DNA of 64,000 nucleotides from an uncultured Nitrososphaerota archaeon (GTDB lineage: Archaea > Thermoproteota > Nitrososphaeria > Nitrososphaerales > Gagatemarchaeaceae): positions 1,504,001 to 1,568,000 of the forward strand of contig CAVRAG010000008.1 in the NCBI GenBank assembly GCA_963718895.1, in the 5' to 3' direction. Positions 2,212 to 25,184 of the stretch are shown in pieces. Both the position numbers and the translations under genes were made by a program. Positions within the stretch are counted from its first letter, which is position 1. Each line of letters opens with the position of its first letter. A model generated the notes under the pieces. It saw only the letters and a list, made by a program, of their open reading frames with translations, had not been told where the DNA came from and did no database searches.

Positions 2212-2344
2212 CGCTCAACGAAATCGAGCTGTGTGGGGTTCATCGCGCCTCCGCCGGGGCATCTCATCCACACGTTGGGCTATGGGCGACGCGCGCGAAC
2301 GAATCAGGCCAGCCAGATGTTCGAGTTCTTCCCTTCATGCCTGC

Positions 2345-2704
2345 TTAGGTCGCTTCAATCCGGATTTCTCTTTCCGTGACGACAATCAGCGCGTTGGGGT
2401 GCTTGGTGATGTCAGCGCGAGCAAGGAGACGTTCGATGCACTCCTGGACTCTAGTGGGCGTCGGAGGATGCGACCTAATGATGATGACCCCGAACGTCGT
2501 CTTGAGTTGGTGGTGCAGACGAATGAAGTCTTGGTCCAACGAGATAACCATCCTGCCTTCGCGGTGAGCGTATCGCGCGATTGCGACGTCAGTCGCGCCA
2601 GGGTGGAGCGCTTCGATCGTTCCTTTGGTGTCGTGACCCTGCCGCTTCAGCCAACTCCTGACGCTCGAGGGAACGTTCTCGTCTGTAAGGAATCGTAGAG
2701 TCAC
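2345..2704 (-). CDS. DUF5615 PIN-like toxin
   Basis: LRFLTDENVP, ATDVAI, ISLDQDF. Confidence 0.85.
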   Translation of the reverse strand: MTLRFLTDENVPSSVRSWLKRQGHDTKGTIEALHPGATDVAIARYAHREGRMVISLDQDFIRLHHQLKTTFGVIIIRSHPPTPTRVQECIERLLARADITKHPNALIVVTEREIRIEAT

Positions 2705-2949
2705 TGTGCCTCAAGTTCTATGACTTCTTCGTCACGCAGCCTCTTTGAGGCGTATTCGAGAGCGGCCCGAATGTCCTCGACCGTTAGGTCTGGGTACTCC
2801 TTCAGTATCCCCTCCTCGGTGATTCCTGAAGCCAGGAGTTCCACTATCAAGTAAACTGCTATTCTAGTCCCCTTGATTACGGGCTTTCCACCCAACACCC
2901 CCCTGTTCGTGCTGATTCTGCCAAGCCTGCTTCTCAATCTGGATTGCAA
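2701..2949 (-). CDS. DUF433 antitoxin
   Basis: GGKPVIKGTRIAV...EYPDLTVEDIRAALEYA. Confidence 0.9.
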   Translation of the reverse strand: MQSRLRSRLGRISTNRGVLGGKPVIKGTRIAVYLIVELLASGITEEGILKEYPDLTVEDIRAALEYASKRLRDEEVIELEAQ

Positions 2950-3202
2950 GAAGGCTCGCTTCTATAAAAAGTAGGCCGACGACCGATTCAAGGATGAGCC
3001 ATGGTTAGGGTTCATTGCGCCTCCGCCGGGGCATTTCATCCATTTGGTGGATGTGGTATGGGAACTGGTTGACACTACCTGCGATCATTCTTCCAGTACC
3101 GTTTCGTTTGGCAGGAATGAATGACTTAGCCACTCCGTAGGTACCGTTGAGAATCGGTACTCTCTCATATTCGTGAGTCAGCCGTCAGGACCGCGGAGCC
3201 AA

Positions 3203-4762
3203 CTAGCCATTTTCTCCGTTGGAGCTTTCCGGTGTATGCCTTAGCCGTAACACGAGAACGGCTGCAATGGCAAGCAGGATTAGCGCAGGCACCCCAAAGG
3301 GAAACTCTGGGACTGAGGACGCCGGCATTACGTAGTATGTGTAGGTCAGGATCGTCGACGACACGATAGTCACTGTGGTGACCGTCCCGCTTATCGTCGT
3401 CGTTGTGGTGGTGGTTACCCTGCTTGTGACAGTAGAGGTGTGGCTGGACGAAACTGGCATCGAGCTCAGAGTGGAAAAGGAATAGAGCGCGCTCCCCTGA
3501 ACCCAGTCGTACAACTCGGTCGAACCGGTGTCTGGAAGAGCGTTGGAATCCAGGCACGTCACGTCCCCGCCGTTGGCGTCCGTGTAGTTCCATTGATGGG
3601 TCGCTGTCCATTTTTCTGTTACCAGCGCCCACCTCGTCTGGGTCGCGTTCCCGAGGATTTTTCCTATCTGCCACCAGAACATGGGTTGCTCACCCTCCGT
3701 CCATCCGGGATAGTCTCGCGGGTCACTGGTGCTGGCGCAGGAACTCCGCAGCGTGTCGTTCCTGAGCGCATCGTTGTGATATCCGCCCAGAGTGGGGTCC
3801 CAGAGAGTCCTGTTTATCCAGGTCAGGTCCTGATTGACCCAGCTCCTTACGGTCGCGTTGTCTGTTAGCTGGGAAAAGTACGCCAGTCCGACCGCTCCCC
3901 AGATGTCTTCGTTCGCGCCCTTCCTGCAGTCCTCCAGGCCAGAGAGATTGGCATAAGCGGACCGCATGAAACCCTGAAAGCCGTTGGCGGTACAGTCTAC
4001 CGAGCCGGCTCCACCAGAGAGGGTGTTGCTTGAGCTGTCCCAGAGATAGTCGCGGGCGAAGGAGACGGCCGCGCTCATCCTGCCTATGTATGAGGTGTTC
4101 CCCGTCACTGCGGACCATTGCGCTGTCGCCCACACGTACGAACCGATGCTCTGCTCGATGTTGACGTCTCCTGAAGGTTGGCCATCGCACACGTTGTAGG
4201 ACACCTCGGCGATATTGTCGGAGGTGCTCCAGAAGCGACCGTTCAGCAGCGTCTCGACTTCGTTGGCCCTGTGCAGCCAAATCGCGGAGCCGTTAGTGCC
4301 ATAGAGGTTGAGAAACACGACCAGAAACATCGCGCTGTCCTGCAGGTACTGCTGGCAGTCTACATTCCTCCAGTTCGTGTCATACACGTCATAGAAGCCC
4401 CCGTTTGTCGGGTCCCATGCATTTTCCCAGAATCGCTCGGAGGAGCGGGATGCCCACGAGAGATAAGTCTGGTTTCCGGTCGCTTTGTAAAGCTGGACCA
4501 GACCTTCGTCGATGAATGCGTTACCCAGGGTTGTGAACTGATCTGCTTGGACTGTCGCCCAGTTGCTCGAGAGAGCAGAGTAATATGCTCCCGCTGTGGT
4601 GTCGAGCATGTAGCTGTGAAGCCTGTTCGCTAGCTGGACTGCCAGGGTTAGATATGGTACGGAGATGAAGCCGGTCACGGAGGTTGCTTGCACGCTCACG
4701 ACGGCGGAGGCGACGAACAGGACAGCGATGAACAGCGAGAGCGACTTCGCCGAGCGCGACAC
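3203..4762 (-). CDS. Secreted (alpha/alpha)6-barrel glycoside hydrolase-like protein (GH76/AGE-like) with PEF-CTERM-type sorting tail
   Basis: Signal peptide; LYKATGNQTYL and WDPTNGGFY/WDPTLGGY repeats; Thr-rich linker; VPEFP + TM + basic tail. Confidence 0.7.
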   Translation of the reverse strand: MSRSAKSLSLFIAVLFVASAVVSVQATSVTGFISVPYLTLAVQLANRLHSYMLDTTAGAYYSALSSNWATVQADQFTTLGNAFIDEGLVQLYKATGNQTYLSWASRSSERFWENAWDPTNGGFYDVYDTNWRNVDCQQYLQDSAMFLVVFLNLYGTNGSAIWLHRANEVETLLNGRFWSTSDNIAEVSYNVCDGQPSGDVNIEQSIGSYVWATAQWSAVTGNTSYIGRMSAAVSFARDYLWDSSSNTLSGGAGSVDCTANGFQGFMRSAYANLSGLEDCRKGANEDIWGAVGLAYFSQLTDNATVRSWVNQDLTWINRTLWDPTLGGYHNDALRNDTLRSSCASTSDPRDYPGWTEGEQPMFWWQIGKILGNATQTRWALVTEKWTATHQWNYTDANGGDVTCLDSNALPDTGSTELYDWVQGSALYSFSTLSSMPVSSSHTSTVTSRVTTTTTTTISGTVTTVTIVSSTILTYTYYVMPASSVPEFPFGVPALILLAIAAVLVLRLRHTPESSNGENG

Positions 4763-5012
4763 GAAGATCGTTTGGTGTCGTCCGAATTAAAAGCGCGTCG
4801 CTGCTGAGATTTCTCCATGGTTTCGAGCAGAGAGGACAATTTGTTTGTCGTGACCATGGATCAACTGAACATGTAGATCGCTGTCTGCGACCGGTCAGGG
4901 TTTGGTATCTCTAACGAGACTCGTTGGTTCATTGCGTCTCCGCCGGGGCATTTCAGCGTCAGTTTTCGGACGTTGCAAGCTGCGCTTTGTCCCGGATTGG
5001 TCGGCCGTTCAA

Positions 5013-6011
5013 TCAGGGAACGCCGCACGAGCTTAAGCATCCCGCAACCACCGTCCTAGAGACCCGGGTCCCGTAGAAGCCATTCGTGGTGGCCATGAAC
5101 GTTACCGTATACCGGTTTCCAGGGACTATCGAGATGTGCCCTGGCGCGTTTGCTTTCATCCCGATTGCGTACGATACGCTGTACTGGGAGGGCGAAGCGC
5201 CAGAATGACCAACCCCGACGGAGCCGATATAGGTTCCGTTGATGAGGACATCCACCTCGGAGATCTGGCTGGTCGTGTTGAAGACGAGGACCGCGGACAG
5301 GACCGGATTGACCGAAGAGAGCACGACACTCCTTATCGATATGAGGTCGGTCGGAGAGATGCCTGTGCTGAGCTGGCCCGAGTAAATCGACTCCTTCAGG
5401 CTTGAGCCATCACTGGCTATGACCGTGATTCCTACGCCGCCTTGTGGAATGAAGTAGACGCCCGAACCGCCTGTGAACGTGACAGAGACATTCGCCGCCT
5501 TGCCCGGCTGAAGCATGGCGCTCGGAGTAACTGTGAATCCCACCGTCGTTGCAGTTGGGCCGGTCATGGTGTCGTTCGACGGTACCCAGCCCATGGCGTT
5601 GATGCAGGTTGCGACGATGGAGACGGGTGAACTCCCTGTGTTCTTGATTCCCGTTAGTACGCCCGAGTAGCTGAGGCTGTTCTCGCCGCCGCCGAAGGCC
5701 AGACCAGCCGCCTCGTTGCTGCCGCCACCTGTCGCGATGTTTGATATGTTACTGCAGAACCTCGAGACGAATGTTCCACTCACCGCGTAGGTCGCAAGTT
5801 GCGGGGACTTTGAAGGGTTTGTCGCGGTCGTAGCGACGGTGGTGGTCGTTGTTGTAATCGTAGACGTCTCAGTCGTCGTCTTGAACGCTGTCGATGTCAC
5901 GGTCTTCGACGCTTGCCCAGTGGCTACGAACAGGCTCGCGGAGATTAGCACGCCGGCTATGACGATTGCTGCAGCAATGACGAGATAGCTCCGAGCCGGC
6001 GGAGAACTCAA
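5013..6011 (-). CDS. Membrane-anchored Ser/Thr-rich surface protein (paralog family A)
   Basis: N-terminal TM IAAAIVIAGVLISASLF and Thr-rich stalk, nearly identical to the N-terminus of 7620..8273. Confidence 0.75.
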   Translation of the reverse strand: MSSPPARSYLVIAAAIVIAGVLISASLFVATGQASKTVTSTAFKTTTETSTITTTTTTVATTATNPSKSPQLATYAVSGTFVSRFCSNISNIATGGGSNEAAGLAFGGGENSLSYSGVLTGIKNTGSSPVSIVATCINAMGWVPSNDTMTGPTATTVGFTVTPSAMLQPGKAANVSVTFTGGSGVYFIPQGGVGITVIASDGSSLKESIYSGQLSTGISPTDLISIRSVVLSSVNPVLSAVLVFNTTSQISEVDVLINGTYIGSVGVGHSGASPSQYSVSYAIGMKANAPGHISIVPGNRYTVTFMATTNGFYGTRVSRTVVAGCLSSCGVP

Positions 6012-6044
6012 ACCGAAGCACCTTGCGATTCTGAGCCGGATTTC

Positions 6045-6065
6045 TGATTAATAGTTTTGTCCGAA
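6045..6065 (-). promoter_or_regulatory. Shared BRE/TATA-like motif TCGGACA(A/T)AACTATTAATC upstream of surface-protein cassettes
   Basis: Recurs at ~8307, 24191, 27960, 31553 and 32661, each ~30-45 bp upstream of a minus-strand start. Confidence 0.65.
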
Positions 6066-6141
6066 TGGCAGAGCCTCTAGGCTTGTTTGATTGAGGATGC
6101 CGTAAAAAGGCATGCCATGTATAGGGTTCATTGCGCCTTCT

Positions 6142-6633
6142 TCAAAGTTCTGTGGGGAGGCCCTTGTTCTTCGCGATTGAGAGCTTTCTGGTGTCCCATG
6201 AGAAGCTCGAGTTGGGTCTGACCACTATGGTAATGTCGTCTCTCGAGAAGTACGACCTCACCTTCGGATCACTCAGGGTCTCCTTCCCGAGATACTTCTC
6301 GTGGATGCGATGATTGAACTCCAAAGACTTGCGCGGCGAGAGGAAAGAGGCCTCTCCCCTCAACTGGACGCCCCAGACATGGAGACTCTGAACTGCGCTG
6401 TCGAGCAGGACCGCAACCCGTGGGTCGGCCCTTATGTTCTTCACCTTGACTGTGTCCTTGTTCGTGCAGATGTACATCCTGCCCTTCTCCCAGATGAACC
6501 AGACAGGCGTTACCTGTGGGAATCCGTCCCTTCCTTTGGTGGCGAGTCTTGCGATGAGCCGCTTGCCGAGATACGCTTCAATCCACTTCTTGGTCTTCGT
6601 CACTTCAGCCGAAGCAGATTTTCCCGTCGACAT
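6142..6633 (-). CDS. Pyridoxamine 5'-phosphate oxidase-like (PPOX/F420-dependent) protein
   Basis: ARLATKGRDGFPQVTPVWF, KVKNIRADPRVAV. Confidence 0.85.
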   Translation of the reverse strand: MSTGKSASAEVTKTKKWIEAYLGKRLIARLATKGRDGFPQVTPVWFIWEKGRMYICTNKDTVKVKNIRADPRVAVLLDSAVQSLHVWGVQLRGEASFLSPRKSLEFNHRIHEKYLGKETLSDPKVRSYFSRDDITIVVRPNSSFSWDTRKLSIAKNKGLPTEL

Positions 6634-6782
6634 GGTGTATGCAAGACGCTCGGCGACAGGAGTTAATTTACTCTCTGTGAACAACTGGAGGGAGCCGGAA
6701 CCACGCGCGAATCATGTGCCAAGATGGAAAACCGCTGGCGTGTATAGGGTTCATTGCGCCTCCGCCAGGGCTGCCGTGACCT

Positions 6783-7592
6783 CTACGGATTCAGACCTCT
6801 GACAGCCCATGCTCTCGCAGCCAGTTGAATCTCTCCCTTCGGGCCGGTTGGCAGTTCTGCAATCAGCTTCGCCCGCAACCTTTCCCTGTTCGCCTCGTTG
6901 AGCGACGTTATGTATTCGCCTGCAGGACCCTGGCCCCCGAGGAAGGGATTCCAGTAGTCAGCGAAATCTTGAAAGCGCATCTCTATCCCGATGGGACCGA
7001 CCTCTACGTCGGAGAGTCCGGCATCCTCGAACAATCTCCTCAGCCGATCTGGACGACAGAGAGGAAAGCGCTCGCCTTGGTCCAGATGCCGGGCGGCCGG
7101 GTCAAGAGCCGAGGCCGAGTCCCAGAACGAACGCAGCATCTTCATCCCGTCCGAGTAGTCCCATACGCAAACAGAGACGACTCCGCCTCGCCTGGCCACG
7201 CGGCGCATCTCCTGCAGCGCTCTCGCCGGGTCGGGGATGAAATTCAGGACGAATTCAGAGAGCACCCCGTCGAAGCTTTCGTCGGGGAAGGGCAGAGCCA
7301 TCGCATCGCCGACGCGGAACTCCGCCATGTGGCCGTAATTAGCGAGTCTTGAATGGGAGTACTCGATGAAGGCGGGGGAGGGGTCAACGGCCGTCACCCG
7401 TCCGGCTCCTGACGCCAGGACCGCCTCGGTCAGCGCTCCCGTGCCGCAACCGACATCGAGGACCCGGGCATCCGTCGGAACCCGCGCCCAGTCGAGGAAC
7501 TTGGGAGCGAGCAGCTGGGACCACCTGCCCATGAACGCCTGATAGGCTTCGCCGTCTTCCCAAGCAGTCAGGCCACTCTCACGAGTGGACAT
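6783..7592 (-). CDS. Class I SAM-dependent methyltransferase
   Basis: VLDVGCGTG, GDAMALPFPDESFD. Confidence 0.9.
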   Translation of the reverse strand: MSTRESGLTAWEDGEAYQAFMGRWSQLLAPKFLDWARVPTDARVLDVGCGTGALTEAVLASGAGRVTAVDPSPAFIEYSHSRLANYGHMAEFRVGDAMALPFPDESFDGVLSEFVLNFIPDPARALQEMRRVARRGGVVSVCVWDYSDGMKMLRSFWDSASALDPAARHLDQGERFPLCRPDRLRRLFEDAGLSDVEVGPIGIEMRFQDFADYWNPFLGGQGPAGEYITSLNEANRERLRAKLIAELPTGPKGEIQLAARAWAVRGLNP

Positions 7593-7619
7593 TTGCCGCG
7601 GTCTCCTATTTAATGAAGG

Positions 7620-8273
7620 TCATACTGGTTCGGGCCAAAGGAGCTCGTTTCCTCGGGAGGGGTTCGTCGCGCCTCCGCCAGGGAAGATCGACCCGTGCGC
7701 CAGACAGTTCTCGTTGTAGTAGCATACATAGGTGGTGACGTGCCCTGATGAGATGTCAAAGGTCACGTAGATGCTGGCAATGGGCGACGTCGAGACCGAC
7801 AGGCTGTAGTTGAAACCCGCATGGCTGACGACCAAATCGTAGTATCCGAAATCGCCGTCGAGCATGCTCGCCCATCCGCTCGAGTTAGTTGTGACAGGCG
7901 GCAGATTTGAGACCTGCAGGTAGTCGTTACAGTATCCTTGCGCCTGGCCGCTCACCCTAGCGCCCGGGACAGGAGTCGTCCCGTTCACCACGTGAATTAC
8001 CGCTCCGATGGTTGGGCCGGAGACGGTACACTGGACGTTCGTGTACACGGTATTCGTGAACGTCTGCGTTGCCACTGTTTTGATGGAGGTTACAGTCGTC
8101 GTTGTGGTCACAGTCTCCGCGGACACTGTGTTGGTGGTTCCCTGTCCCGAAGTCAGTGTCACGGTCTTGGTCTCTTGCCCAATGGCGAAGAACAGGCTCG
8201 CGGATATTAGCACCCCGGCTATGACGATTGCTGAAGCAATCGCAAAGTAGCTCCGGTTAGCCTGGCCGCTCAA
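7620..8273 (-). CDS. Membrane-anchored Thr-rich surface protein (paralog family A); 3' end reads through a repeat copy
   Basis: N-terminal TM shared with 5013..6011; C-terminal IFPGGGATNP is encoded by the repeat at 7660. Confidence 0.7.
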   Translation of the reverse strand: MSGQANRSYFAIASAIVIAGVLISASLFFAIGQETKTVTLTSGQGTTNTVSAETVTTTTTVTSIKTVATQTFTNTVYTNVQCTVSGPTIGAVIHVVNGTTPVPGARVSGQAQGYCNDYLQVSNLPPVTTNSSGWASMLDGDFGYYDLVVSHAGFNYSLSVSTSPIASIYVTFDISSGHVTTYVCYYNENCLAHGSIFPGGGATNPSRGNELLWPEPV

Positions 8274-8521
8274 GAGGTTGAACCTCTGCCGAAGTCGGGC
8301 GTTATCTGATTAATAGTTTTGTCCGAACGGAACCTCTAGCCGTTTGCCTAATTCAAGATGCCGTAAAGAAAGGCAGTGCCATGTATAGGGTTCATTGCGC
8401 CTCCGCTGGGGCATATTCGGTCGACGAATGATTCGAATTGCACTTCAAGGTGCTTCTGAGCGCTGGCACGTCTGTTCAAATCCGCAAGTGGATAAATATC
8501 TTCGAACCTTGATTAGGGCCC

Positions 8522-9031
8522 GTGTATGAAACAGAGCAAGAGCTGGGCGAATTGCAGCTCCTCCTCGACAGAAGTATGAACAGGGCAGGCGCCCAGGTGC
8601 GCTCCATCTTCGCGGACGAGAATCGACTCTCTGCTCGACAGATTTGTACGTATATGCAGGGGGTCAAGCAGGTAGCCGCCGCGACGGTAAGCTCAAGGGG
8701 AGAACCCAGAGTAGCACCAATAGATTCTGTGCTGTTCCATGGGAAGTTCTACATCTCCACAGACCTGCTTTCTTTTCGTGCCAAGGATCTTCGCAAGAGA
8801 CCGGCCATAAGTCTGACCTATTTCGAAAGTGCCGACCCAGTGATTATAGTTCATGGTGCGGCAGCTTTCATCGAGAAGGACCATCAAAGTTTCGCCAGCC
8901 TAGATTCGGAATGGGTCAAGGCTTACGGCAAGAGCATTCTGCAGCTTTCTGAGACTGTTACATTCATACAGGTCGAATCCAGAACGATGCTAGCATATGC
9001 TTTCCATCCGGAGAGGTTTCAAGACACATAG
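8522..9031 (+). CDS. Pyridoxamine 5'-phosphate oxidase family protein
   Basis: ATVSSRGEPRVAPID, LRKRPAISLT. Confidence 0.8.
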   Translation: MYETEQELGELQLLLDRSMNRAGAQVRSIFADENRLSARQICTYMQGVKQVAAATVSSRGEPRVAPIDSVLFHGKFYISTDLLSFRAKDLRKRPAISLTYFESADPVIIVHGAAAFIEKDHQSFASLDSEWVKAYGKSILQLSETVTFIQVESRTMLAYAFHPERFQDT

Positions 9032-9180
9032 ACAATTGAATTCCTCGGCAATGGTCATTGAGAACGAATACGATGTGTAGGGTTCATTGCGCCTGGAGTT
9101 GACAGTCCCAGTTGGAATCAAGCTTGGATGAGATGGTAAGTATCCGACGCCCGCACACTAGGTCGAAGACACAATCTCTG

Positions 9181-9663
9181 TTAGACATTACCTTCAATTG
9201 AAGGGATGATTGAAAATGTCACGACATAGACGGGGTCGCCAAGATTGTCATACCGACTCTCGATTCTCCAGACATGATTGGCTACCAGCTTGATTCGTAT
9301 TCGGACATTCGAACCAACAAGATGATACTGATTCCAGGGCTCGCTAGAGGCTGTAATTCCTGCCTCCACTCCTCCGTGGCCCTTCGGGTCGTTGAGTTCT
9401 TCAGGGGTTGCTGGGCTCCCTTTCGGTCCCCTTCGATTGGGAGGCGAATCTACCTTTACAGTTACGTTTGTCTCAGGCGCGATTACATCTCCCTTCTTTG
9501 GATTGACGCTCGACCCACGAACGCTCAGCAGGACTGCTCTGGCTCGAATCTTGTTACCATCTTCAAGATTGTATGTAGACCACCCTTCGATGGTCTCAAT
9601 TTCGAAATCTAGTATGCGAAGTTGGCTTGGATCACTGATGGGTTCGGCACTAGGTGCTGACAC
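9181..9663 (-). CDS. Hypothetical protein with internally duplicated motif
   Basis: EGWSTYNLEDGNKIRARAV and EPWNQYHLVGSNVRIRIKLV. Confidence 0.65.
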   Translation of the reverse strand: MSAPSAEPISDPSQLRILDFEIETIEGWSTYNLEDGNKIRARAVLLSVRGSSVNPKKGDVIAPETNVTVKVDSPPNRRGPKGSPATPEELNDPKGHGGVEAGITASSEPWNQYHLVGSNVRIRIKLVANHVWRIESRYDNLGDPVYVVTFSIIPSIEGNV

Positions 9664-10006
9664 GCTGTGTTGTCCCCATAGGTGGCACTTGTGAGGATTG
9701 GGAGACGGGGAAGTTCATCGAAGGAATGGTTTCGAGAATAAATCCTGAGACAGTGCCTACGGTTGCTCGGAACTCTTTTCTCGGGTCCAATATGAACTTG
9801 CCAGATTCCCAAGGTCGACTCTGATCTCGTCTGTCGTTCTCTGCTAAGGCTTGAAGTACTCGAATGTTGTCGTCCATAGCTTGCGAAGACAGTCTCTCTA
9901 TTTCCTCAAGCGGAATGTTGTCTTCAGTCAAGGCAGAACACTCGTCTGTGGTTCTGGACGGGAACTTAAGCATTATGCATGATTCATCGACCCATATGCA
10001 GTTCAA
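9650..10006 (-). CDS. Hypothetical protein, putative Doc partner/antitoxin
   Basis: Overlaps the Doc gene end; helix DDNIRVLQALA; true start uncertain. Confidence 0.45.
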   Translation of the reverse strand: MNCIWVDESCIMLKFPSRTTDECSALTEDNIPLEEIERLSSQAMDDNIRVLQALAENDRRDQSRPWESGKFILDPRKEFRATVGTVSGFILETIPSMNFPVSQSSQVPPMGTTQRVST

Positions 10007-10385
10007 ACCAAGAAGAGAGCTCTACAAGTGATAGTCGACCCGTTGCTACGCCGCTTAGAATCGATACGGCCTCATCCGGGTCTACAAGTACCAATTTGCA
10101 CCCGTTTGCCCTCAGAAACACATCTGCGGTCTGATAGGCGGTGCGTTTGTTACCATCAACGAATGGGTGATTGGTCACCAAGCACCACAACAAGTATGCG
10201 GCAATTCTCGCTATTTGCTGTCTTTCAGAATACTCAGAATACTCGGCTTCTTGATCTCGAGCGGTTTCGATGCAGTAGTCAAGACCGCCCACATAATTGA
10301 AGCCTGGGGATTTCTCGCCCATCCGGCTCATTAACTCCCGGTGTATAGCCACGACTCCCTCCATTGTAGGGTATCGCAGAGTCAA
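9984..10385 (-). CDS. doc: Fic/Doc family toxin
   Basis: HPFVDGNKRTA motif. Confidence 0.9.
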   Translation of the reverse strand: MTLRYPTMEGVVAIHRELMSRMGEKSPGFNYVGGLDYCIETARDQEAEYSEYSERQQIARIAAYLLWCLVTNHPFVDGNKRTAYQTADVFLRANGCKLVLVDPDEAVSILSGVATGRLSLVELSSWFELHMGR

Positions 10386-10454
10386 TCAAGTGTCACAGAA
10401 TGGAAATCCCATAATAAACATGCGTTGCGCCGCATGACCGAGACAAAGAGAGGC

Positions 10455-10564
10455 TTCTAGTCGTTGATCTGTTGGATGCCGTAAAAAGGCAAGTGCCATG
10501 TATAGGGTTCATTGCGCTTCTGCCGGAGCATTTCAGCCACACGTTGGGCTGCAGTAAGCCGACC
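10455..10564 (+). repeat. Near-complete copy of the cassette-boundary element
   Basis: GATGCCGTAAAAAGGCAAGTGCCATGTATAGGGTTCATTGCGCTTCTGCCGGAGCATTTCAGCCACACGTTGGGCTGCAGTAAGCCGACC. Confidence 0.9.
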
Positions 10565-13592: not shown

Positions 13593-13614
13593 GAGATCCG
13601 TGAGCTGACCGCGA

Positions 13615-16124: not shown

Positions 16125-16215
16125 GTCGGACTTCGCCACGTATAGGGTTCATCGCGCCTCCGCCGGGACATTCCATCCACACGTTGGGCTATGGTAAGTC
16201 GGCCAACCGGAATCG

Positions 16216-16864: not shown

Positions 16865-16937
16865 TGCTTCGCGTTAACATTCGGCCGAGATATATCGCTT
16901 TCCAGCTTCAGAAGAGAGCTTTCGCCATGCATAGGGT

Positions 16938-17372: not shown

Positions 17373-17586
17373 CTTCCTTTCTCCGGTCTCTCGATATCCC
17401 GAGGGCGACCTCCAGCATCTCGTCTCCTCCTGCCCCAAAGCTATCTTCCATCGAGCGGGAGGGCTCGAGAAGAATTCGTCCTCCCTCATCTCTGATTATC
17501 ACGGAGCGGCCGATCTTGAACTTCTTTCTGAGAGGCGCTGGGATGACTACCTGTCCCTTGGAAGACACGGGAACGACCTTTTCCAT
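17353..17586 (-). CDS. AbrB/MazE-type antitoxin
   Basis: VSSKGQVVIPAPLRKKF. Confidence 0.9.
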   Translation of the reverse strand: MEKVVPVSSKGQVVIPAPLRKKFKIGRSVIIRDEGGRILLEPSRSMEDSFGAGGDEMLEVALGISRDRRKEVESERA

Positions 17587-17897
17587 GAAATCCGAGAAAG
17601 TAGCACTTGTTTAAGTGTCTTACTTCCGTAGAGTTTTACTTCTAGAGCGATTTACTTCCTGGGTTCGGTTCGAGAGGGTTCATCGTGCCTCCGCCGATTG
17701 CATCCACACATTGGGCTATAGTGAGTCGACCGGGACAGGGAGCGTTCACTAGCGAGTCGACCCTCCACGGTCCGCGATTCCGCGACTATAGCAGATTCAA
17801 GATAACAGCGAGAGGCGAGCCGAAGTTCGCATCTTTCTTCTTGAACCTGCGCGGCGAACAGATCGACGCGAGGACATGAAACCCTTAAGATAGAATC

Positions 17898-19014
17898 ATG
17901 ACAAGAAAGCCTGTGAAAGCGGCTGTTCTGAACAGGCCTGGAGCGCCGATGGTCATCGAGGAGCTGGCAAGTCCGGTGCCGAGAAGAGGTGAGGTCCTCG
18001 TGAAGGTCAAAGCCTGTGGGGTGTGTCACACCGACCTGCACGTGATGAAGGGCGAGGTGAAGTTTCCATGCCCCGCGGTTCTGGGCCATGAAATCTCCGG
18101 TGTCGTTGAGTCAGTCGGCGAGGGGGTCTACGGTCTGGCCTCTGGCGACAGGGTCCTATGTCCGTTCATAATGCCGTGCGGGGATTGCTTCTTCTGCAAT
18201 CGGGGTGACGATAATCTCTGCGAGCGGTTCTTCTCTCTCAACAGGCTGCAGGGCAGACTCTTTGACGGCGAGACGCGCCTGCACAGGCCGAACGGAGATC
18301 CCGTCTGGATGTACAGCATGGCTGGGTTGGCGGAGTACTCTGTGGTGCCCAGGACGGCCGTCTTCAAGCTTCCCGACGGCCTCCCCAGTGATGAATCCTG
18401 CATTCTGGGTTGCGCGGCGTTCACCTCCTACGGGGCGGTGAAGAACCAGGCCGGCGTCCAGCCCGGGGAGTCCGTGGCGGTCGTCGCCGTGGGCGGGGTG
18501 GGCATGAACGTCGTCCAGCTCTGCAGGTCTCTGGGGGCGAGGCAGATCGATCGCGGTTGACGTGAGAGAGGACAAGCTGGAGATGGCGATGAAGCTGGGA
18601 GCCACCGACGCGATCAATTCGTCGAAGAGCGACCCCGTAGTCGAAGCCAGACGCATCACAGGCGGTCGCGGGGTCGACGCAGTCTTCGAGGCCTTGGGAA
18701 GGCCCGAGACCATCCTTCAGGCAGTCGGCCTCGTCAGGGACGGGGGGAAGGTTGTCCTGATAGGCATCGCGCCGGCCGGTCAGACCGTGGCGCTTGAGAT
18801 AACCCCCCTTGTCCGACGGGGCATACGGATATTTGGATCGTACGGAGCGAAGACCCGGACGGACGTACCCATCCTTCTTGACCTGGCGAAGAACGGTGCA
18901 ATAGACGTGGGGCGGGTCGTCACGAAGAGGTACAGGTTGGAGGAGGTGAACAGCGCCTATCAAGCCCTCGGAAGAGGGGAGATAGTCGGAAGGGCGATCG
19001 TCGTGATGGACTGA
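17898..19014 (+). pseudogene. Zn-dependent alcohol dehydrogenase, frameshifted near 18548
   Basis: GVCHTD, GHE, CGDCFFC..C and GGVG; continues as 18562..19014. Confidence 0.85.
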
Positions 19015-19196
19015 GACGGTGACGGCCGCCTGGGCTTCGCTGATAGTGTGCTTATGGAAGTGTAACATGCGCATGGTTCATCGTGCCTCCGCCGGGGCAT
19101 TTCAAACGGCTGAGCGCCGACGGAATTGGATTCCCAGATAGGTACGTTAGAACATCTCTGCGCTGGTCCTTTTTAGCGTGAATCACGTCGAAGGGT

Positions 19197-19589
19197 ATGT
19201 CCGGGTACAAGTTCCCAACCGTGGATGAGATGATCGAGGTCAACAGACGAGTGCTGGCAGAGATACCGGTCAAGAGGGCGGACAGGCATCAGGTCTTGTC
19301 TCGCATGAAGTTGCAGCTTATCCTTGATGATGCAAAGAAGACGAACGGGGACGTCTACAATCCCGCGACGGAGCTCCTGTTCGGAATCGTGAAAGGACAT
19401 CCTTTTGCAAGCGGCGTCAGGCGGACCGCGGTGACCGTCACCTCAGCGTTCCTGGAGTTGAACGGCGCCGGGACAGAGGTGCCACACGATCCTGATGTGC
19501 TAAAAGGGATCCGTGAGGGTTTTTATAGCAAGAGCGAGATCAAAGAATGGCTGAAGGGTCATGGCATCAGAAAGCTCCCAGGTGATTGA
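19197..19589 (+). CDS. Fic/Doc family protein with degenerate motif
   Basis: HPFASGVRRTA. Confidence 0.8.
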   Translation: MSGYKFPTVDEMIEVNRRVLAEIPVKRADRHQVLSRMKLQLILDDAKKTNGDVYNPATELLFGIVKGHPFASGVRRTAVTVTSAFLELNGAGTEVPHDPDVLKGIREGFYSKSEIKEWLKGHGIRKLPGD

Positions 19590-19665
19590 TTCCGAGTTCC
19601 TTCGCTACTGTGAAGAGTATATAGCGAAGAACCGCGAGTTCCTTCAGCGCGTCGGCAGACTCTGA
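19561..19665 (+). CDS. 34-aa putative Doc antitoxin peptide (not in the ORF track)
   Basis: MASESSQVIDSEFLRYCEEYIAKNREFLQRVGRL*, overlapping the Doc 3' end. Confidence 0.55.
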   Translation: MASESSQVIDSEFLRYCEEYIAKNREFLQRVGRL

Positions 19666-19748
19666 GCCCCGGTGTCTCGTTAGCGACGCGAGGGGAGGGA
19701 CTCTTCCTGAAGTATGGGGTTCATTGTGCCTCCGCTGGAGCATCAGAG

Positions 19749-20264
19749 TCAGGGGCTCAGTGTGAGAGATTCTCTGTTGTTGAACCACTGCATTGTAGGA
19801 GGCTCTATGTCATCCTGCCAGAGAAGCGCTATCATCTCCCCAAGGTGATAGAGCTGCTCGGTGAAGCTCTGGAAGAGGCACTCCTCGACCGTCATGTCGA
19901 AGACCACTCCCGATGAGAGCGTGAACTTGACCACGCGTGAAAGCTCGTTCGAGTCCAAACCACCAAGATAGGACCTGGTCTTGTCTTCGACGCCTGCCAA
20001 GAAGGATTCGACCGAGTCGAACCCTGCGAAATCGCTGAGAGGATGCTTCGTCCTTTCCATCGCCGGTCGGCCCGGGATGACGATGTTGACTATCCAGTAC
20101 TCGTTATCGATCATGTGGAGCAGGATGCCCATGAGGCTGTGGTAGCTCGCTTCCCTGTTTTTTGTAGCCTCATCCCAACCCAGCGAGGTTACCTTTGCGA
20201 GGAACTTCCTCCTCACGCGTGATGAGTATGCGTTGAGCGCTCGGATATCGATCAAGACAGCCAT
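19749..20264 (-). CDS. DinB family protein
   Basis: SLMGILLHMIDNE..W, EQLYHLGEM. Confidence 0.8.
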   Translation of the reverse strand: MAVLIDIRALNAYSSRVRRKFLAKVTSLGWDEATKNREASYHSLMGILLHMIDNEYWIVNIVIPGRPAMERTKHPLSDFAGFDSVESFLAGVEDKTRSYLGGLDSNELSRVVKFTLSSGVVFDMTVEECLFQSFTEQLYHLGEMIALLWQDDIEPPTMQWFNNRESLTLSP

Positions 20265-20411
20265 GCGTGGCGGGAGGAAGAATAAAGCCTCGCGTGGGCG
20301 AGAGATTCTTGAGTGCGCTCTGTGCCTGCATGTGACGCGCCGTGCCAGGGTTCATTGCGCCTCCGCCGCGAACCCCATTCCAATGGTTTCCTGTCCGAAC
20401 GAGGTTTGAGT

Positions 20412-21577
20412 TCAGGTCTTCCCGAACCTCCTGAAGAGGAGAACGCCAATCGACAGGATTGCTAGGCTGGTTGCGGATACCATTGCGAGGTCTGTCATAA
20501 CGGCCTGGCTGGTCGCCGTCGCCCCTCTGGTGAAGAGAGACGTGAGTGCGTCGGTCACGTAGTAGGCGGGAACGAACCGGCCCGCAGCCTGCACGCCTGT
20601 CGAGAGGGCCGCGCCTACGAACGTGCCCAAGAAGAGCTGCGGCATCAGGAAGAGGAACGATATCCCTGTGGCCGCGCCTGCCGTCTTTGATATGGCGGCG
20701 GTAATCAGCCCGAAGCCGATGTTGCACATGGCGAAGATCGTCACGATGAGGAACCCCACGACCAAGCCGGAGAGGTCCGCCACGGGATGGTAGCCAAGCG
20801 CATAGACGCAGAGGAAGACGAGCAACGCCTGCACGAGGCCGATGACGAGGTACGAGAGCACCGATCCTGTAATCAAATCTGCGCCCGTGGCTGGAGTCAC
20901 GGCGATTCTGCTCAGGAGGCCGTTCTCCCTCTCCCCGGTGTACGACTGGGCGACCATCATTATCATGTAAATCGAGGCGAAGGCGAAGAGTCCCGGTGCG
21001 AATGTATCGAATATCGACGATCCCTGGACCTTGACCATTGATGGGCTCGCCACGTCGACGGGGACCGCGGGAGCGGCGGACATTGCGCCGAGGACGGCGC
21101 CGTTGAGGGTCTGATCGACAATGGAGGGGATTACCTCGGCCGAGAGTAGGGAACCCCTGTCGAGGTAGAGTGGGACGGTGCAGTTGACCCACCGGATTGG
21201 CGAGTCTGGATAGGCCCTGAACGAGCTCACGCTCGGGTCAAACTGCGGAGGAAGCAGAAGAACCCCCTGGACCTTACCCTGGCTCAGGGCCGACTGGGCG
21301 GTCTGGTTGTCCTGGTAGTAGTGGATCCTCGATCGCCCCCGTCGCGTCGAGGGCCTGGGCGAACTGATGTGAGGGGGTCGAGTTGCCACCGGTCCCGAGG
21401 TCGACGACTGCGAGGTTGTACGTCGACGACTGCGAGCCGCCGACGGCCCCGAATGAGGTCCCGAACGCTATGGTGAGTATCACCGGGAAGAGGATTATCA
21501 TGAAGAGGAACGCGGGTTCCCTGAACATCCTCCTCCATTCCTTCTTGGAGAGCGCCAAGGGCGCGACCCAGCTTCAT
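20412..21577 (-). pseudogene. ABC-2 type transporter permease, frameshifted
   Basis: KEWRRMFREP..IILFP and ERENGLL.R...TP lie in different frames. Confidence 0.8.
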
Positions 21578-22342
21578 CTATGACCCCTCCCTGATTCTTC
21601 GTCCCGTGAGCTGGATGAAGACGTCCTCGAGGTCCCTTGCCCCTTTGCCCGACCTGAGCCCCGCCGGGGACCCGAGGGCGATGAGCTTCCCGTGGTCGAT
21701 GATCCCGACCCTGTCGCAAAGCTCCTCTGCCTCCTCCATGTAGTGCGTCGTGAGCAGAATTGTTCTTCCCTGGTCTCTCAGCTCGACAACGAAGTCCCAT
21801 ATCGCCCGGCGAGACTGCGGGTCCATCCCGATGGTGGGCTCGTCCAGCAAGACGATTCTGGGGTCATGGACGAGCGCCATGGCGATGCTCACTTTGCGCT
21901 TCATACCGCCGCTGTACTTGCTCACCCTCCTGTCGCCCTCGTCGAGTAGGCCGACCTTCTCCAGCATGCTGTCGACCCGGGTGTCCAACGTCTTCTTCGG
22001 GACAGAGCAGAGCTCGCCGAAGAGCTTCACGTTCTCCCTCCCGGTCAGGTACTGATAGACCGCGGTCTCCTGTGGGGAGACTCCGATTATGCTCCTTGCT
22101 TTGGCGCCGTCGGTCACGGCATCGAACCCGCCCACCCTGATCGACCCCGCGGTCGGCTTCATGAGGCCCGTGAGACAGTTGATGGTGGTCGTCTTTCCGG
22201 AGCCGTTGGGCCCCAGCAGCCCGAAGATTTCCGCTTCGTGGACCGAAATCGAAAGGTCATCGACGGCCGTGACTTCCCCAAACTCCTTCGTTAGGTTCTC
22301 GATTACCACCGCATTGGTCCCCTTTGTGGTTTCCCTCTGCAT
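21578..22342 (-). CDS. ABC transporter ATP-binding protein (DrrA-like)
   Basis: GPNGSGKTT, YSGGMKR, LLDEPT, LTTHY. Confidence 0.95.
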   Translation of the reverse strand: MQRETTKGTNAVVIENLTKEFGEVTAVDDLSISVHEAEIFGLLGPNGSGKTTTINCLTGLMKPTAGSIRVGGFDAVTDGAKARSIIGVSPQETAVYQYLTGRENVKLFGELCSVPKKTLDTRVDSMLEKVGLLDEGDRRVSKYSGGMKRKVSIAMALVHDPRIVLLDEPTIGMDPQSRRAIWDFVVELRDQGRTILLTTHYMEEAEELCDRVGIIDHGKLIALGSPAGLRSGKGARDLEDVFIQLTGRRIREGS

Positions 22343-22475
22343 GCCTTGGCCGCCGACCGCTCGGTTGTTATTTTGGCGTCAATGAGACGGGAGAAGAATC
22401 GGACAATGTGACTCGTATCGAAGGGCTGTTCTTCACCCTGACCGTTGACACTTTGGAACGCGCTGGATGATACGG

Positions 22476-23393
22476 TCAGCCGCTGGATACGGCCGCTCTT
22501 TCGACCCCGTCGAGACCAAGCCTGTCCACCGACGTGTCGAACATGTAGCCGATTTGAAGCACGTTGACCGTGGCAGACCCCACTCCCTTCGCCCTGACGA
22601 TTCCTTCCCTCAAGTCGTCCATCTGCCTCATCGAGTTCGTCCAGAGGAAGAGTATCAGCTCGTTGGGGAGGTTGCTGAACATCATTTCAACCAAGATGTT
22701 CTGCGAGAAGGTCTGTCTGAGTGTTGAAAGAACGTCCGACCTGCCGGCGCCACAGGCGACCTTGATGTGGCCGATGGAGATGATGTCGTTTGAGGCGTCT
22801 GGGTACCATTCCAAAGGGAACTCGAGGAGGCGATTCTCGATCATCCTCTCCAAGCGCCTGTGAACGGTCTTTGCAGAGGCTCTGACCTCAGCGGCCACGT
22901 CGCTGAGTGGCTTTCGCTGGATCCTCGTGGCGAAATGCAAGAATCTGGTAGTCCAGTGGATATAGTTGTGCGCTGGGAAGGGTACTGGTCGATTGAGATA
23001 GGATTCCCACAGTGGGTTCGCCTATCTCGCCTTCCTTCCTCACGAAGGAGACGTACGAGTCCAACTCAGAGAGGTCCCTGAGGTACCCTCCCACGTACAC
23101 GTAGCCCCCTCCCGAATTGGCGACCTAGTAGGTAGAGTCGTTGTTCTTGAGGCGCAGGTGAGCATCGCTCGGATGGTCTGCGTTAGACCTCCCGAACAAG
23201 AAAAACATCGTGACATTGAGGGAGCTCAAGCTCACTCGCGTAGAGAAGGTATGTATGACGCCCATGTGGACCAGTGCCTGACTCTCTTGTGAACCGCGTT
23301 TATGGACAGCGCAAGCCTGCTGGCCAGCTCATGGTACGGAGTACTCGAGTTTGACAACAAGAACAGGCAAAGCTTGATGTCGGTGCTGTCCAT
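22476..23393 (-). pseudogene. Lrp/AsnC family regulator (double HTH), disrupted
   Basis: MDSTDIKL...PYHELASRLALSINAVHKR at the 5' end; second HTH KPLSDVA..SAKTVHRRL; several frame breaks. Confidence 0.7.
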
Positions 23394-23499
23394 CTCGCCT
23401 CGGATGGCGGTGCGAATGCGCCTTGAGTAAAGGCTTTACGAGCGCCGTCAGGAGACGCCTGCCGACTCGTACCGTCGGACGGAATCCAGGGGTTCTTCG

Positions 23500-24156
23500 G
23501 GTGGGTTCATTGCGTCTCTCTTTCTTGCGAAGCTACCTACTGAGAAGGTCTGAGAAATAGACGCACTCTCGAAGTGTTCGGAGAGCACGCCCGAAGTGTT
23601 CGTGGACAACGTCATGGTCAACACCGCATAGATCATACCTGCGGAAGTTATCTCATAGCTCGCCGCGTTCTCGCAATCGGTCGTTAGGGCGATATCCCGT
23701 CCCGCCCGGAGCAAGAGAGGTGAAGGAGATGGTGCGGAAACATCCGTACGAATCGGTCACCGTGGTAGCTGGCGAGATCGGCGAGGGTGAGCACGGGGAG
23801 ACGGACGCATAGACCGGAGTCGTGCGCCCATCATAGACGGCGTAGTAGGCGGTCGAGTTGCCGATGTTCTTGAAGATCACATCGAACACGAGGTGGGAGC
23901 CGACCGTAGTGTTCACCAGCTTCGCCGAGACTATCTGCACTTGTCCGTCGGTCGAACTGGAAGCTCCGGAGGACGTGTTGTAGGAAGGACAATCACAGGC
24001 TGACGAACTGGAACGACCCGGGTTCGGGATCAGCGTGGATGTACGGCCTGAACTCGCCTGGATTGTGATAATCAAAGCCACGACAGAAGTGACAATGATT
24101 GCCGCCATCACACCTGCGACAGAAGCTCTCCCGATTGCTCGCCTCCTGGGGTTCAT
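23500..24156 (-). pseudogene. Membrane-anchored surface protein, paralog of 31649..32626, frameshifted near 23700
   Basis: IVSAKLVNTTVGSHLVFD..FKNIGNST.YYA.YDGRT shared; homology continues in frame 23448..23714. Confidence 0.75.
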
Positions 24157-24296
24157 TACAGCACTTCGATGATAGAAAAGGCGGGTTTTGTGATTAATAG
24201 TTATGTCCGATAGAGTTGGGATTCAGAATATTGTTCCTGCAGAGTTTGGTCGCCCTTGGAAGTTTTTCCATAAGGTCCAGGCTTTTCCTAATCTGA

Positions 24297-24373
24297 GATG
24301 CCGTAAGAAGGCAAGTGCCATGCACAGGGTTCATTGCGCCTCCGCCGGTCCATTTCATCCACACGATGGGCTA
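24297..24373 (+). repeat. Near-complete copy of the cassette-boundary element
   Basis: GATGCCGTAAGAAGGCAAGTGCCATGCACAGGGTTCATTGCGCCTCCGCCGGTCCATTTCATCCACACGATGGGCT. Confidence 0.9.
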
Positions 24374-24444
24374 CGGGCGACACGGGCGACGCACGCGAAC
24401 GAATCAGGCCAGCCAGACGTTCGAGTTCTTCCCTTCATGCCTGC

Positions 24445-24804
24445 TTAGGTCGCTTCAATTCGGATTTCTCTTTCCGTGACGACAATCAGCGCGTTGGGGT
24501 GCTTGGTGATGTCAACGCGAGCAAGGAGACGTTCGATGCACTCCTGGACTCAGTGGGCGTCGGAGGATGCGACCTAATGATGATGACCCCGAACGTCGTC
24601 TTGAGTTGGTGGTGCAGACGAATGAAGATCTTGGTCCAACGAGATAACCATCCTGCCTTCGCGGTGAGCGTATCTCGCGATTGCGACGTCGGTCGCGCCA
24701 GGGTGGAGCGCTTCGATCGTTCCTTTGGTGTCGTGACCCTGCCGCTTCAGCCAACTCCTGACGCTCGAGGGAACGTTCTCGTCTGTAAGGAATCGTAGAG
24801 TCAC
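24445..24804 (-). pseudogene. DUF5615 PIN-like toxin, second copy, frameshifted
   Basis: Near-identical to 2345..2704 with 1-bp indels at ~24629 and ~24552. Confidence 0.85.
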
Positions 24805-25049
24805 TGTGCCTCAAGTTCTATGACTTCTTCGTCACGCAGCCTCTTTGAGGCGTATTCGAGAGCGGCCCGAATGTCCTCGACCGTTAGGTATGGGTACTCC
24901 TTCAGTATCCCCTCCTCGGTGATTCCTGAAGCCAGGAGTTCCACTATCAAGTAAACTGCTATTCTAGTCCCCTTGATTACGGGCTTTCCACCCAACACCC
25001 CCCTGTTCGTGCTGATTCTGCCAAGCCTGCTTCTCAATCTGGATTGCAA
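24801..25049 (-). CDS. DUF433 antitoxin, second copy
   Basis: Differs from 2701..2949 by one residue (YPDL vs YPYL). Confidence 0.9.
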   Translation of the reverse strand: MQSRLRSRLGRISTNRGVLGGKPVIKGTRIAVYLIVELLASGITEEGILKEYPYLTVEDIRAALEYASKRLRDEEVIELEAQ

Positions 25050-25184
25050 GAAGGCTCGCTTCTATAAAAAGTAGGCCGACGACCTATTCAAGGATGAGCC
25101 ATGGTTAGGGTTCATCGTGCCTCGCCGGGGCATTTCATCCACGTCGGGCGATTGAGATACAAATGCTGATGAACAGTGCTCTTT

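Follow-up and report, generated by a model that had tools for sequence, protein, structure and literature searches.

Gene cassettes bounded by copies of the 23S rRNA 3′ end and its processing-stem trailer in a Gagatemarchaeaceae archaeon

The window analysed here, a stretch of 64,000 nucleotides from an uncultured Nitrososphaerota soil archaeon of the Gagatemarchaeaceae, which belong to group I.1c of the Nitrososphaeria (assembly GCA_963718895.1, contig CAVRAG010000008.1, positions 1,504,001 to 1,568,000; the genome is called G000 and the contig C8 below), lies in its whole length (1..64000) inside a 126-kb array of about 70 gene cassettes (C8:1441755-1568028), which begins at the 3′ end of the 23S gene of the sole rRNA operon detected. 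The cassettes are typically 0.7-1.5 kb long and carry one or two genes, often a toxin-antitoxin pair. Comparison of their copies shows that they are discrete site-to-site units, which occur in differing contexts within and between species. The array is read here, with moderate confidence, as the product of an integron-like accretion and exchange of cassettes at an attachment (att) site that overlaps the 23S processing stem, with the array growing from the rRNA operon. The original prediction for this DNA described a duplicated cassette and the division of the repeat between its neighbours, and recognised neither the 23S rRNA 3′ end and processing-stem trailer in the repeat core nor the anchoring of the array on the rRNA operon.

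The repeat is identified by Rfam model RF02540 (archaeal large-subunit rRNA, LSU), which matches the minus strand of C8:1567701-1574200 at 300-4301 with 2325.8 bits and places the 3′ end of the gene at C8:1568000. This is window base 64000, within the last site of the array, and the alignment takes in ...CUAUAGCCCAACGUGUGGAUGAA. The small-subunit (SSU) rRNA lies beyond the LSU gene, past the window end, and a single LSU gene was detected in the genome, which is 80.5% complete. In the sense of the rRNA, which is the minus strand of the window, the right arm of the site (...GGTCGACUUACUAUAGCCCAACGUGUGGAUGAA) is the last ~35 nt of the 23S gene, and the core with the left arm (AUGCCCCGGCGGAGGCGCAAUGAACCCUAUACAUGGC) is the 23S 3′ trailer. 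On the plus strand the trailer part of the att sequence reads GGGTTCAT-TGCGCCT-CCGCCGGGG, the first ~24-40 nt of the trailer, and sites are numbered from the G of GGGTTCAT as position 1. The conservation peak over 185 sites is AGGGTTCATTGCGCCTCCGCCGG. The conserved right flank of single-copy sites had been considered as the end of a protein gene, which was rejected, as Rfam shows the 23S 3′ end; within the window itself no Rfam family and no tRNA were found.

The strand complementary to the trailer is found in the 23S 5′ leader (GCCAUGCAUAGGGUUC-GCGC-AAG-CA-UCCGCCGGGG). Leader and trailer form a long duplex with a minimum free energy of -68.5 kcal/mol, and drawing it as a canonical bulge-helix-bulge (BHB), with the 3-nt bulges AAG and AAU around a 4-bp GCGC helix, gives -68.4 kcal/mol. 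The outer stem covaries, being GCCAUG/CAUGGC in G000, G027 and G028, GCCGUG/CACGGC in G030 and GCCGUG/UAUGGC in G034, where the other handles stand for relatives described below. On this folding model the trailer part of the site is the 3′ strand of a BHB processing stem, which pairs with the 23S 5′ leader and for which EndA cleavage is predicted. Positions 1-6 belong to the outer helix, 7-9 to the trailer bulge, 10-13 to the central helix and 15-24 to the inner helix, and positions 25-59 are the 23S end. Circular 23S rRNA has been reported in Nitrososphaeria, and EndA cuts at BHB motifs, in passages of a 2026 paper (PMC12918454). Compared with archaeal BHB rRNA stems, which involve EndA and RtcB and circular pre-23S rRNA, the conserved 24 nt of every site are the 3′ strand of such a stem, with its outer helix, 3-nt bulge, 4-bp GCGC helix and inner helix. 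Unlike the BHB stem proper, only the copy adjoining the 23S gene can pair with the single 5′ leader, and the ~70 others are DNA repeats between cassettes. The 23S gene spans 4002 nt against the 2987 positions of the model (C8:1567701-1574200, 300-4301), so that it contains ~1 kb of insertions, which may be rRNA introns, as may an insertion of ~700-800 nt that breaks the 23S 3′ domain of G027 (C1, ~1591.8-1596.9 kb) and puts its reported LSU end 1.2 kb off the true end.

The repeat family has at least 29 copies in the window. A profile search of the genome (nhmmer, built from window sites) gave 83 matches, 69 of them on C8 and 69/69 on one strand, and when C8:1436001-1568100 was searched alone, 72/72 sites were on one strand. 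By RpoB the genome belongs to Nitrososphaeria, with 95% identity to the metagenome-assembled genome (MAG) "Thaumarchaeota archaeon AcS1-27" and 84-85% to group I.1c MAGs. The 19-mer core pattern occurs in 65/97 genomes of the family, from 7/10 genera, and the reversed pattern used as a control in none. The exact site 21-mer is found in at least 167 stretches of public genomes and, among the matches listed, nearly all are Nitrososphaerales or Gagatemarchaeum MAGs. The exact 21-nt site also lies on contigs binned as Acidimicrobiales and Solirubrobacteraceae (DATLTI010000252.1 and DASZMP010000022.1), which are probably mis-binned archaeal contigs. Six arrays were compared, that of G000 and those of five Gagatemarchaeaceae relatives, four of the same genus and one of another. 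In these 245/246 sites share one orientation and extend as far as the 23S gene; their median spacing is ~900 bp (interquartile 716-1503 bp, 240 spacings). The first site is the 23S end with its trailer, as read directly in G000, G027, G028, G030 and G034, and in G007 a distance of 1.3 kb separates the reported LSU end from the closest site. G027 is a complete chromosome in a single contig, with an array of 40 sites. No collinear array was found in a close relative among 22 genomes of the genus.

The cassette of the original prediction carries a DUF433 and a DUF5615 gene, which are adjacent and overlapping, both above the Pfam cut-off, and form a putative toxin-antitoxin pair. It occurs as copy A (2236-3036) and copy B (24327-25137), nearly identical and with different neighbours, as had been described. 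BLAST of the two copies with their flanking repeats gives 96.6% identity over 817 nt, and in a global alignment 29/813 columns differ. The interior (2294-3007) has 9 differences in 714 nt (1.3%, i.e. 98.7% identity), the left repeat has 6 substitutions in 48 nt with a 9-nt indel just past it, and the right repeat differs between the copies in 3 of its 29 nt. In the sequence upstream of the left GGGTTC 8/20 bases match and past position 24 of the right repeat 11/32, where random site pairs match at 0.29-0.32, and the neighbours on both sides are unrelated. The sequences upstream of GGGTTC differ, as had been stated; as to identity starting there, the left repeat with its 6 differences is generic, and its identity is that of the repeat family and not specific to the cassette. 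At the right junction the two copies are identical through ...GAGCCATGGTTAGGGTTCAT, after which come the core variants that had been announced (T/C, C/T and C/-). In copy B the DUF5615 gene has +1 and -1 indels 76 nt apart and a premature stop, which could be sequencing errors, and DUF433 is intact. The DNA of this cassette was not found in 96 other genomes of the family, save one 68-nt match at 78%, nor was a 24-mer of it found in metagenome contigs.

That the assembly placed one cassette twice is extremely improbable. The region is repeat-rich, which would favour such an error, but the 29 differing columns include indels and, on a contig of 1.6 Mb, each copy has its own unique neighbours on either side; both findings speak against a collapse or duplication in the assembly. 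A further argument against an artefact is that equivalent arrays are present in five other assemblies, all independent and one of them a chromosome in a single contig.

Self-comparison of the G000 array revealed six duplicated cassettes, each bounded by sites, with identities of 98.7% (the A/B interior), 92.6, 91.4, 89.9, 81.7 and 79.4%, and the A/B pair is the youngest of them. The cassette beside copy B is duplicated elsewhere and not beside copy A. Between arrays there are many matches of single cassettes, in another order and with other neighbours. The alignments with flanks, which were extended to other duplicated cassettes, show that homology does not reach well beyond the cores and stops inside the flanking repeats, in support of a unit that runs from repeat to repeat, as had been proposed. 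Five cassettes common to G000 and G027 are 89.0, 92.0, 93.9, 89.9 and 94.8% identical, whereas the syntenic core genes beyond the rRNA operon are 77% (5.5 kb) and 83% (a further 0.9 kb) identical; between G000 and G028 the best cassette reaches 88.6%, against 69% for the core. Cassettes that are more alike than the core were either exchanged between species or turn over far more slowly than their surroundings, and on these identities interspecies exchange appears much the more likely.

Repeated integration of large integrase-bearing elements at the 23S end, which then decayed to att copies and leftovers such as toxin-antitoxin genes, would give similar arrays, with the A/B duplicate as an old segmental duplication. 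In archaea, tyrosine-recombinase elements are known to use a single att site repeatedly, in tandem (passages of PMC6563490), a 27-kb element with the same flanks exists in this genome, and four of the six intragenomic pairs are collinear (1476.0/1490.4/1491.8/1493.9 against 1520.9/1523.1/1529.1/1537.3 kb). This account is nevertheless improbable, as single site-to-site cassettes of 0.55-0.9 kb recur in other species in another order and with other neighbours, and are 12-18 points more similar than the core genes. The pairs span 79% to 98.7% identity, which means different ages, and two of them, A/B included, are out of order.

The arms of the sites segregate with the cassettes. Fifteen cassettes found in two contexts, in six genomes, provided 30 junctions, of which 22 were usable and 8 were skipped for want of a clear site in one copy. 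At 12 left junctions the left flank had an identity of 0.30-0.35 and the right arm of 0.50-0.59, and at 10 right junctions the left arm had 0.62-0.70 and the right arm 0.31-0.34 (random 0.29-0.32); the comparison was ungapped, so the identities of shared arms are underestimated. The left arm is thus shown to stay with the cassette to its left and the right arm with the cassette to its right. The arm rule of the original prediction, which was over-read there from a single pair, is right in substance and holds over the 15 cassette pairs.

Exchange occurs within repeat positions 1-24, where all sites are alike and uninformative for a finer placement. The earlier proposal of an exchange in or near GGGTTCAT is compatible with this interval, although the transition can be placed only within it. 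Two classes of sites point further: among the 206 sites that have a good left arm, homology ends at position 15/16 in 26 (at least 4 of them are, by eye, variants with a 1-nt deletion), and among the 165 that have a good right side it does not begin until positions 7-9 in 12. The stop and the start delimit a common segment, TGCGCCT (positions 9-15), directly after GGGTTCAT, in which the exchange probably takes place. Sites were collected by this heptamer, so its definition as the common segment is partly circular; as independent evidence, TGCGCCT accompanies 192/236 left-arm 9-mers, the 44 exceptions being close to the background of 30 other-strand matches, and 67/75 right-arm 12-mers. A crossover in CCTCCGCCGG, with a ATTGCGCC/GGGGCATT dyad, was dropped because the 26/206 sites end at 15/16 and a cassette called X0 starts right after GCGCCT in two genomes. 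In a likelihood mapping of the boundaries a usable anchor was lacking at 10/32 junctions, and the intervals obtained for the others were wide or disagreed.

Under the favoured reading of integron-like accretion, a circular cassette (left arm-core-right arm) would recombine with a site of the array, most usefully at the 23S end, by exchange in or beside the 7-nt TGCGCCT. With the incoming left arm the BHB and the outer stem would be restored, in some cassettes together with a terminator and a promoter, and the insertion would leave rRNA processing intact; this would explain why the left arm and the core are best conserved. The enzyme would probably be a tyrosine recombinase acting in trans, supplied by larger integrative elements with the same flanking site. 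An example is an element of ~27 kb (C8:1189.5-1216.2 kb), which is flanked by the same sites and has two adjacent PF00589 integrase genes, at C8:1190965-1192347 and C8:1192496-1193692; the site-flanked locus (C8:1189525-1222553) is 350 kb from the rRNA operon. In G000, G016, G026 and G028 integrases occur at 0.25-1.4 kb from a site, and their orientation relative to it is the same each time; a search for related loci returned 3. Homologous recombination or gene conversion among the ~70 near-identical sites would also scramble the arms, which would explain that A and B differ more in their sites than inside. The 27-kb element also codes for a PLD-like nuclease, an RNase_H_2/metallophosphatase protein, an ArdC-like protein and two group II intron reverse transcriptases.

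Homologous recombination alone is a serious rival, although it is rather unlikely to be the whole explanation. Copies of the 23S trailer (24-75 nt, up to ~130 nt where the left arm is extended) would serve as portable homology for RadA, and crossovers and gene conversion would excise, insert, duplicate and exchange cassettes, also after DNA transfer between strains, without a dedicated recombinase or a fixed crossover. Several results weigh against the cassette exchange by a recombinase favoured above, and some of them support this rival directly. No recombinase family was found by Pfam among the 90 open reading frames (ORFs) of the window, and no recombinase within 20 kb of either array end, an absence of array-linked enzymes which homologous recombination would not require. 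G027, complete and with its 40-site array, has a single PF00589 match at a distance of ~36 kb, and so keeps its array with one distant integrase. Only 3/20 of the closest integrase-homologue loci (up to 8 kb on each side) have a site, one of these at only 14 bits, and the site has 0 matches in viral contigs, that is, no free site-carrying element was found there. The half-sites GGGTTCAT and CCGCCGGGG do not form an inverted repeat, as the core of a homodimeric tyrosine recombinase usually does. Site conservation declines weakly with distance from the 23S gene in G000 (rho -0.25, p = 0.03), and not significantly in the 5 others, so that insertion at the 23S-proximal end is not established by an age gradient.

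The ends of homology are heterogeneous, which also speaks for homologous recombination. In the 206 sites the right-hand end falls at 15-16 in 26, 17-22 in 49, 23-24 in 66, 25-36 in 32 and 44-59 in 33, and these several modes (15-16, 23-24, 44-59) may mean that there is no single crossover for all cassettes. The sites flanking A and B are mosaics, which differ at 9/77 positions against 9/714 inside (odds ratio 10.4, Fisher p = 1.2e-5), and the alternative bases at six positions of the left site all occur in other sites of the arrays. The excess divergence and the variant bases elsewhere indicate that reshuffling of the repeats does not depend on the cassette. With a fixed exchange point the right arm would travel along unchanged, and a fixed crossover alone cannot give the excess divergence in both flanking sites, so the claim that this pair maps the crossover was overstated. 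The likelihood scan of the A/B pair alone puts the left boundary near position 49 and not at the core. In older pairs with right arms of unique sequence the divergence of the arm is similar to that of the interior, and in our reading arms that are 23S-like may also be subject to conversion or crossing-over with other sites. What homologous recombination alone leaves unexplained is how new genes acquire arms, and why sharp classes (stop at 15/16, start at 7-9) still take part in changes of context; the left neighbour of cassette X0, for example, differs between G000 and G027. About 70 direct repeats should moreover be lost quickly under free homologous recombination, and integrase-bearing elements with the same flanking site do exist.

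The segment TGCGCCT (9-15) is also the stretch between the predicted endonuclease cuts, at the trailer bulge (7-9) and at the leader bulge opposite 14-15. A highly speculative and quite improbable variant is that the recombination site is the BHB motif itself, with capture coupled to rRNA processing by an RNA-templated step, or by an enzyme reading the DNA that encodes the BHB, and not by an ordinary att-site integrase. If true, this would be a novel type of gene-capture platform, which the only detected rRNA operon drives and without which it could not work.

Some proteins were considered as recombinases and rejected. A 462-aa integrase at C8:1339 kb lies directly beside a tRNA-like sequence and is part of a different element; its tyrosine-recombinase frame (C8:1337934-1341458, 946-2280, minus) runs upstream into the tRNA-like sequence (...GSWVRIPPPAP...), which in sequence is the signature of an element integrated at a tRNA gene and unrelated to the array. 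ORFs of 260, 471 and 475 aa beside the rRNA operon, considered as possible novel recombinases, are antisense artefacts over oxidoreductase and NTPase genes. Longest ORFs mislead in this GC-rich DNA, where the plus-strand ORFs of 471 and 475 aa are antisense to minus-strand oxidoreductase genes, so strand counts of longest ORFs in the arrays are only rough. A 3.3-kb block conserved in the G027 and G028 arrays was rejected as a recombinase source, since its products are a P-loop ATPase and a winged helix-turn-helix (wHTH)-like protein. No serine recombinase was found in G000.

The platform functionally resembles a sedentary integron and also tandem accretion at a tRNA gene, and lacks what defines an integron (IntI, attC hairpin, attI). 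A trait shared with integrons is the presence of co-oriented sites between short cassettes. Like here, integrons and clusters of attC sites lacking integrases (CALINs), including those of archaeal MAGs (passages of PMC9668308), have long arrays in one orientation, with one- or two-gene cassettes rich in toxin-antitoxin pairs. In integrons, and presumably here, excision divides the site between neighbours; in both systems cassettes change places, occur in duplicate and are common to several species, and one end is fixed. Integron sites, however, are hairpin-forming imperfect palindromes, whereas here they are copies of the 23S 3′ end and BHB trailer, and integrons have IntI and are anchored at intI/attI, whereas here no IntI is found and the anchor is the rRNA gene. 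Unlike in integrons, at least some cassettes here have their own promoter-like motif, and a contig holds 40-72 sites, where passages of PMC9668308 report no more than 12 attCs on any contig with an archaeal integron. A classical integron, or an attC cluster without integrase, can hardly be the right explanation. Co-oriented sites, small toxin-antitoxin-rich cassettes and the integrons reported in archaeal MAGs (passages of PMC9668308) would suit it. The integron integrase model TIGR02249 scored at best 33.8 bits in the genome (80.5% complete) against a cut-off of 265, and 8/8 site windows of 100 nt (4 sites, both strands) fold no better than shuffles (z +0.31 to +1.71). The integron was rejected on these two results, and the site is moreover a 23S trailer and not an imperfect palindrome, in an array that starts at an rRNA gene and not at intI/attI.

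Cis-mobilizable and integrative mobilizable elements (CIMEs and IMEs) are found at the 3′ ends of tRNA and tmRNA genes, with tandem accretion and with integrase-less units that are mobilised in trans. As in the arrays described here, their att block overlaps the 3′ end of a stable RNA and is restored by the incoming copy, and direct repeats flank the units. Reuse of the site likewise gives arrays, in which integrase-less units stand beside integrase-bearing elements with the same site. Such arrays have two to four large islands, whereas here there are tens of units of ~0.9 kb, and the target here is the 23S rRNA 3′ end and its processing stem, unlike the tRNA or tmRNA genes of these elements. 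Tandem accretion would also predict an integrase in or beside each unit, whereas only the 27-kb element carries integrases. A second known type is formed by pdif modules and IMEX elements, which are small Xer-dependent modules, often with toxin-antitoxin genes, between short sites; dif-type sites have two inverted 11-bp arms and a 6-bp spacer, and alternate in orientation. The cassettes are like Xer modules in being bounded by short sites and maybe moved by a recombinase that they do not encode. They are unlike them in that the arms form no inverted repeat and every site has the same orientation. A recombinase of the XerA type would be expected for dif modules, and on the XerA model the two tyrosine recombinases of the 27-kb element, which include the nearest integrase, score 74.6 and 54 bits against a cut-off of 220.

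In passages of Krupovic et al. 2019 (PMC6563490) the targets of integrated elements of thaumarchaea are tRNA genes, 3′ ends of protein genes and intergenic regions, and a term search of this paper for "rRNA" gave 0 occurrences. The terms integron, cassette, toxin-antitoxin, integrase and rRNA operon are all absent from Sheridan et al. 2023 (PMC10640624), on the Gagatemarchaeaceae. Ghaly et al. 2022 (PMC9668308) deals with attC-type integrons, with 0 occurrences of Nitrososphaer*, Thaumarchaeo* or rRNA. In the full-text literature, with supplements and subscription journals outside its scope, no description of an rRNA-anchored cassette platform or of a 23S-end target was found.

If the favoured reading is true, a whole family of archaea that are abundant in acid soils devotes 2-4% of its genome to a library of exchangeable cassettes at the end of the one rRNA operon detected, and the att site is an rRNA processing signal, a sequence which the cell cannot afford to change. 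It would be a functional counterpart of integrons in Nitrososphaeria, invisible to tools based on attC and IntI, and a new class of integration target, the end of an rRNA gene rather than a tRNA gene. It would also offer a natural system for the study of cassette formation, of species crossing (89-95% against 77% for the core) and of an rRNA maturation that tolerates insertions in the processing stem. For annotation, the arrays can be found with the 19-nt pattern.

Features of the window are listed in Table 1. Cassette contents identified by Pfam are of an integron-like kind and include PIN, MazE, DUF433/DUF5615, Fic, TumE, methyltransferases, PNPOx and DinB, and 23/33 Pfam-supported ORFs in the array parts of the window are in the rRNA sense. 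Beyond the rRNA operon are subunits of a 2-oxoacid:ferredoxin oxidoreductase and an NTPase. Some cassettes have a longer left arm, which is like the native sequence 3′ of the 23S gene and has a hairpin and a T-run. After the long left arm comes a motif like the B recognition element and TATA box (BRE/TATA), which has 9 sense-strand copies, 75-130 nt past the site core and 12-41 nt ahead of a minus-strand ORF start. This TTCGGACAAAACTATTAATCA motif is a candidate archaeal promoter, and promoter and terminator roles are suggested by sequence for some cassettes.

Table 1. Sites, genes, cassettes and promoter-like motifs of the window
Feature	Position in window	Strand	Remarks
Left site, copy A	2236..2295	-	GGGTTCATCGCGCCTCCGCCGGGGCATCTCATCCACACGTTGGGCTATGGGCGAC
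DUF5615, PIN-like, putative toxin, copy A	2345..2704	-	Intact, 119 aa; PF18480, 78.4 bits, and translation
DUF433, putative antitoxin, copy A	2701..2949	-	82 aa; PF04255, 85.6 bits
Right site, copy A	2996..3041	-	Left arm GCCATGGTTAGGGTTCAT common with copy B
Left site, copy B	24327..24395	-	6 substitutions against left site of copy A; 9-nt insertion just right
DUF5615, copy B	24445..24804	-	Disrupted; 100-aa ORF at 24512-24814 without Pfam match
DUF433, copy B	24801..25049	-	Intact; PF04255, 85.1 bits
Right site, copy B	25096..25141	-	Core variant CATCGTGCCT-CGCC; is left site of next cassette
PIN/MazE cassette adjoining copy B	25120..25984	-	Second copy (90%) at C8:1491769-1492633, not beside copy A
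Duplicated cassette	16924..17690	-	Second copy (92.6%) at C8:1475999-1476765
Duplicated cassette	19075..19735	-	Second copy (91.4%) at C8:1490397-1491061
Esterase cassette, site-to-site	56381..57196	-	Common to G026 (92%), G025 (82%) and G032 (83% and 80%)
BRE/TATA-like motif, part 1	6042-6080, 8304-8342, 24188-24226	-	Minus-strand TTCGGACAAAACTATTAATCA; minus-strand ORF starts
BRE/TATA-like motif, part 2	27956-27994, 31548-31586, 32658-32696	-	Minus-strand TTCGGACAAAACTATTAATCA; minus-strand ORF starts
Native site, 23S gene 3′ trailer	63962..64000	-	Rfam LSU; gene continues past window

A part of ~19 kb inside the array (window 36541-55317) is without sites. It codes for a 1587-aa TIG-domain protein, a zinc-ribbon protein, a Double-GTPase (DO-GTPase1/2) and large ORFs without family matches, and may be a conflict-system island that was inserted as one large cassette. 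Three tandem repeats of 645 bp (96% and 65-76% identity) are found at window 50180-52045 within an ORF of 782 aa, which has weak matches to bMG3-type domains. More copies of the site occur in G000 at C4:263558-300943, C6:2468-2524 and C10:31675-31716. Those of C4 are on both strands (7 plus, 5 minus), with some cassettes 80-90% identical to C8 loci, and may represent a second array, a rearranged fragment or a contig that was mis-binned.

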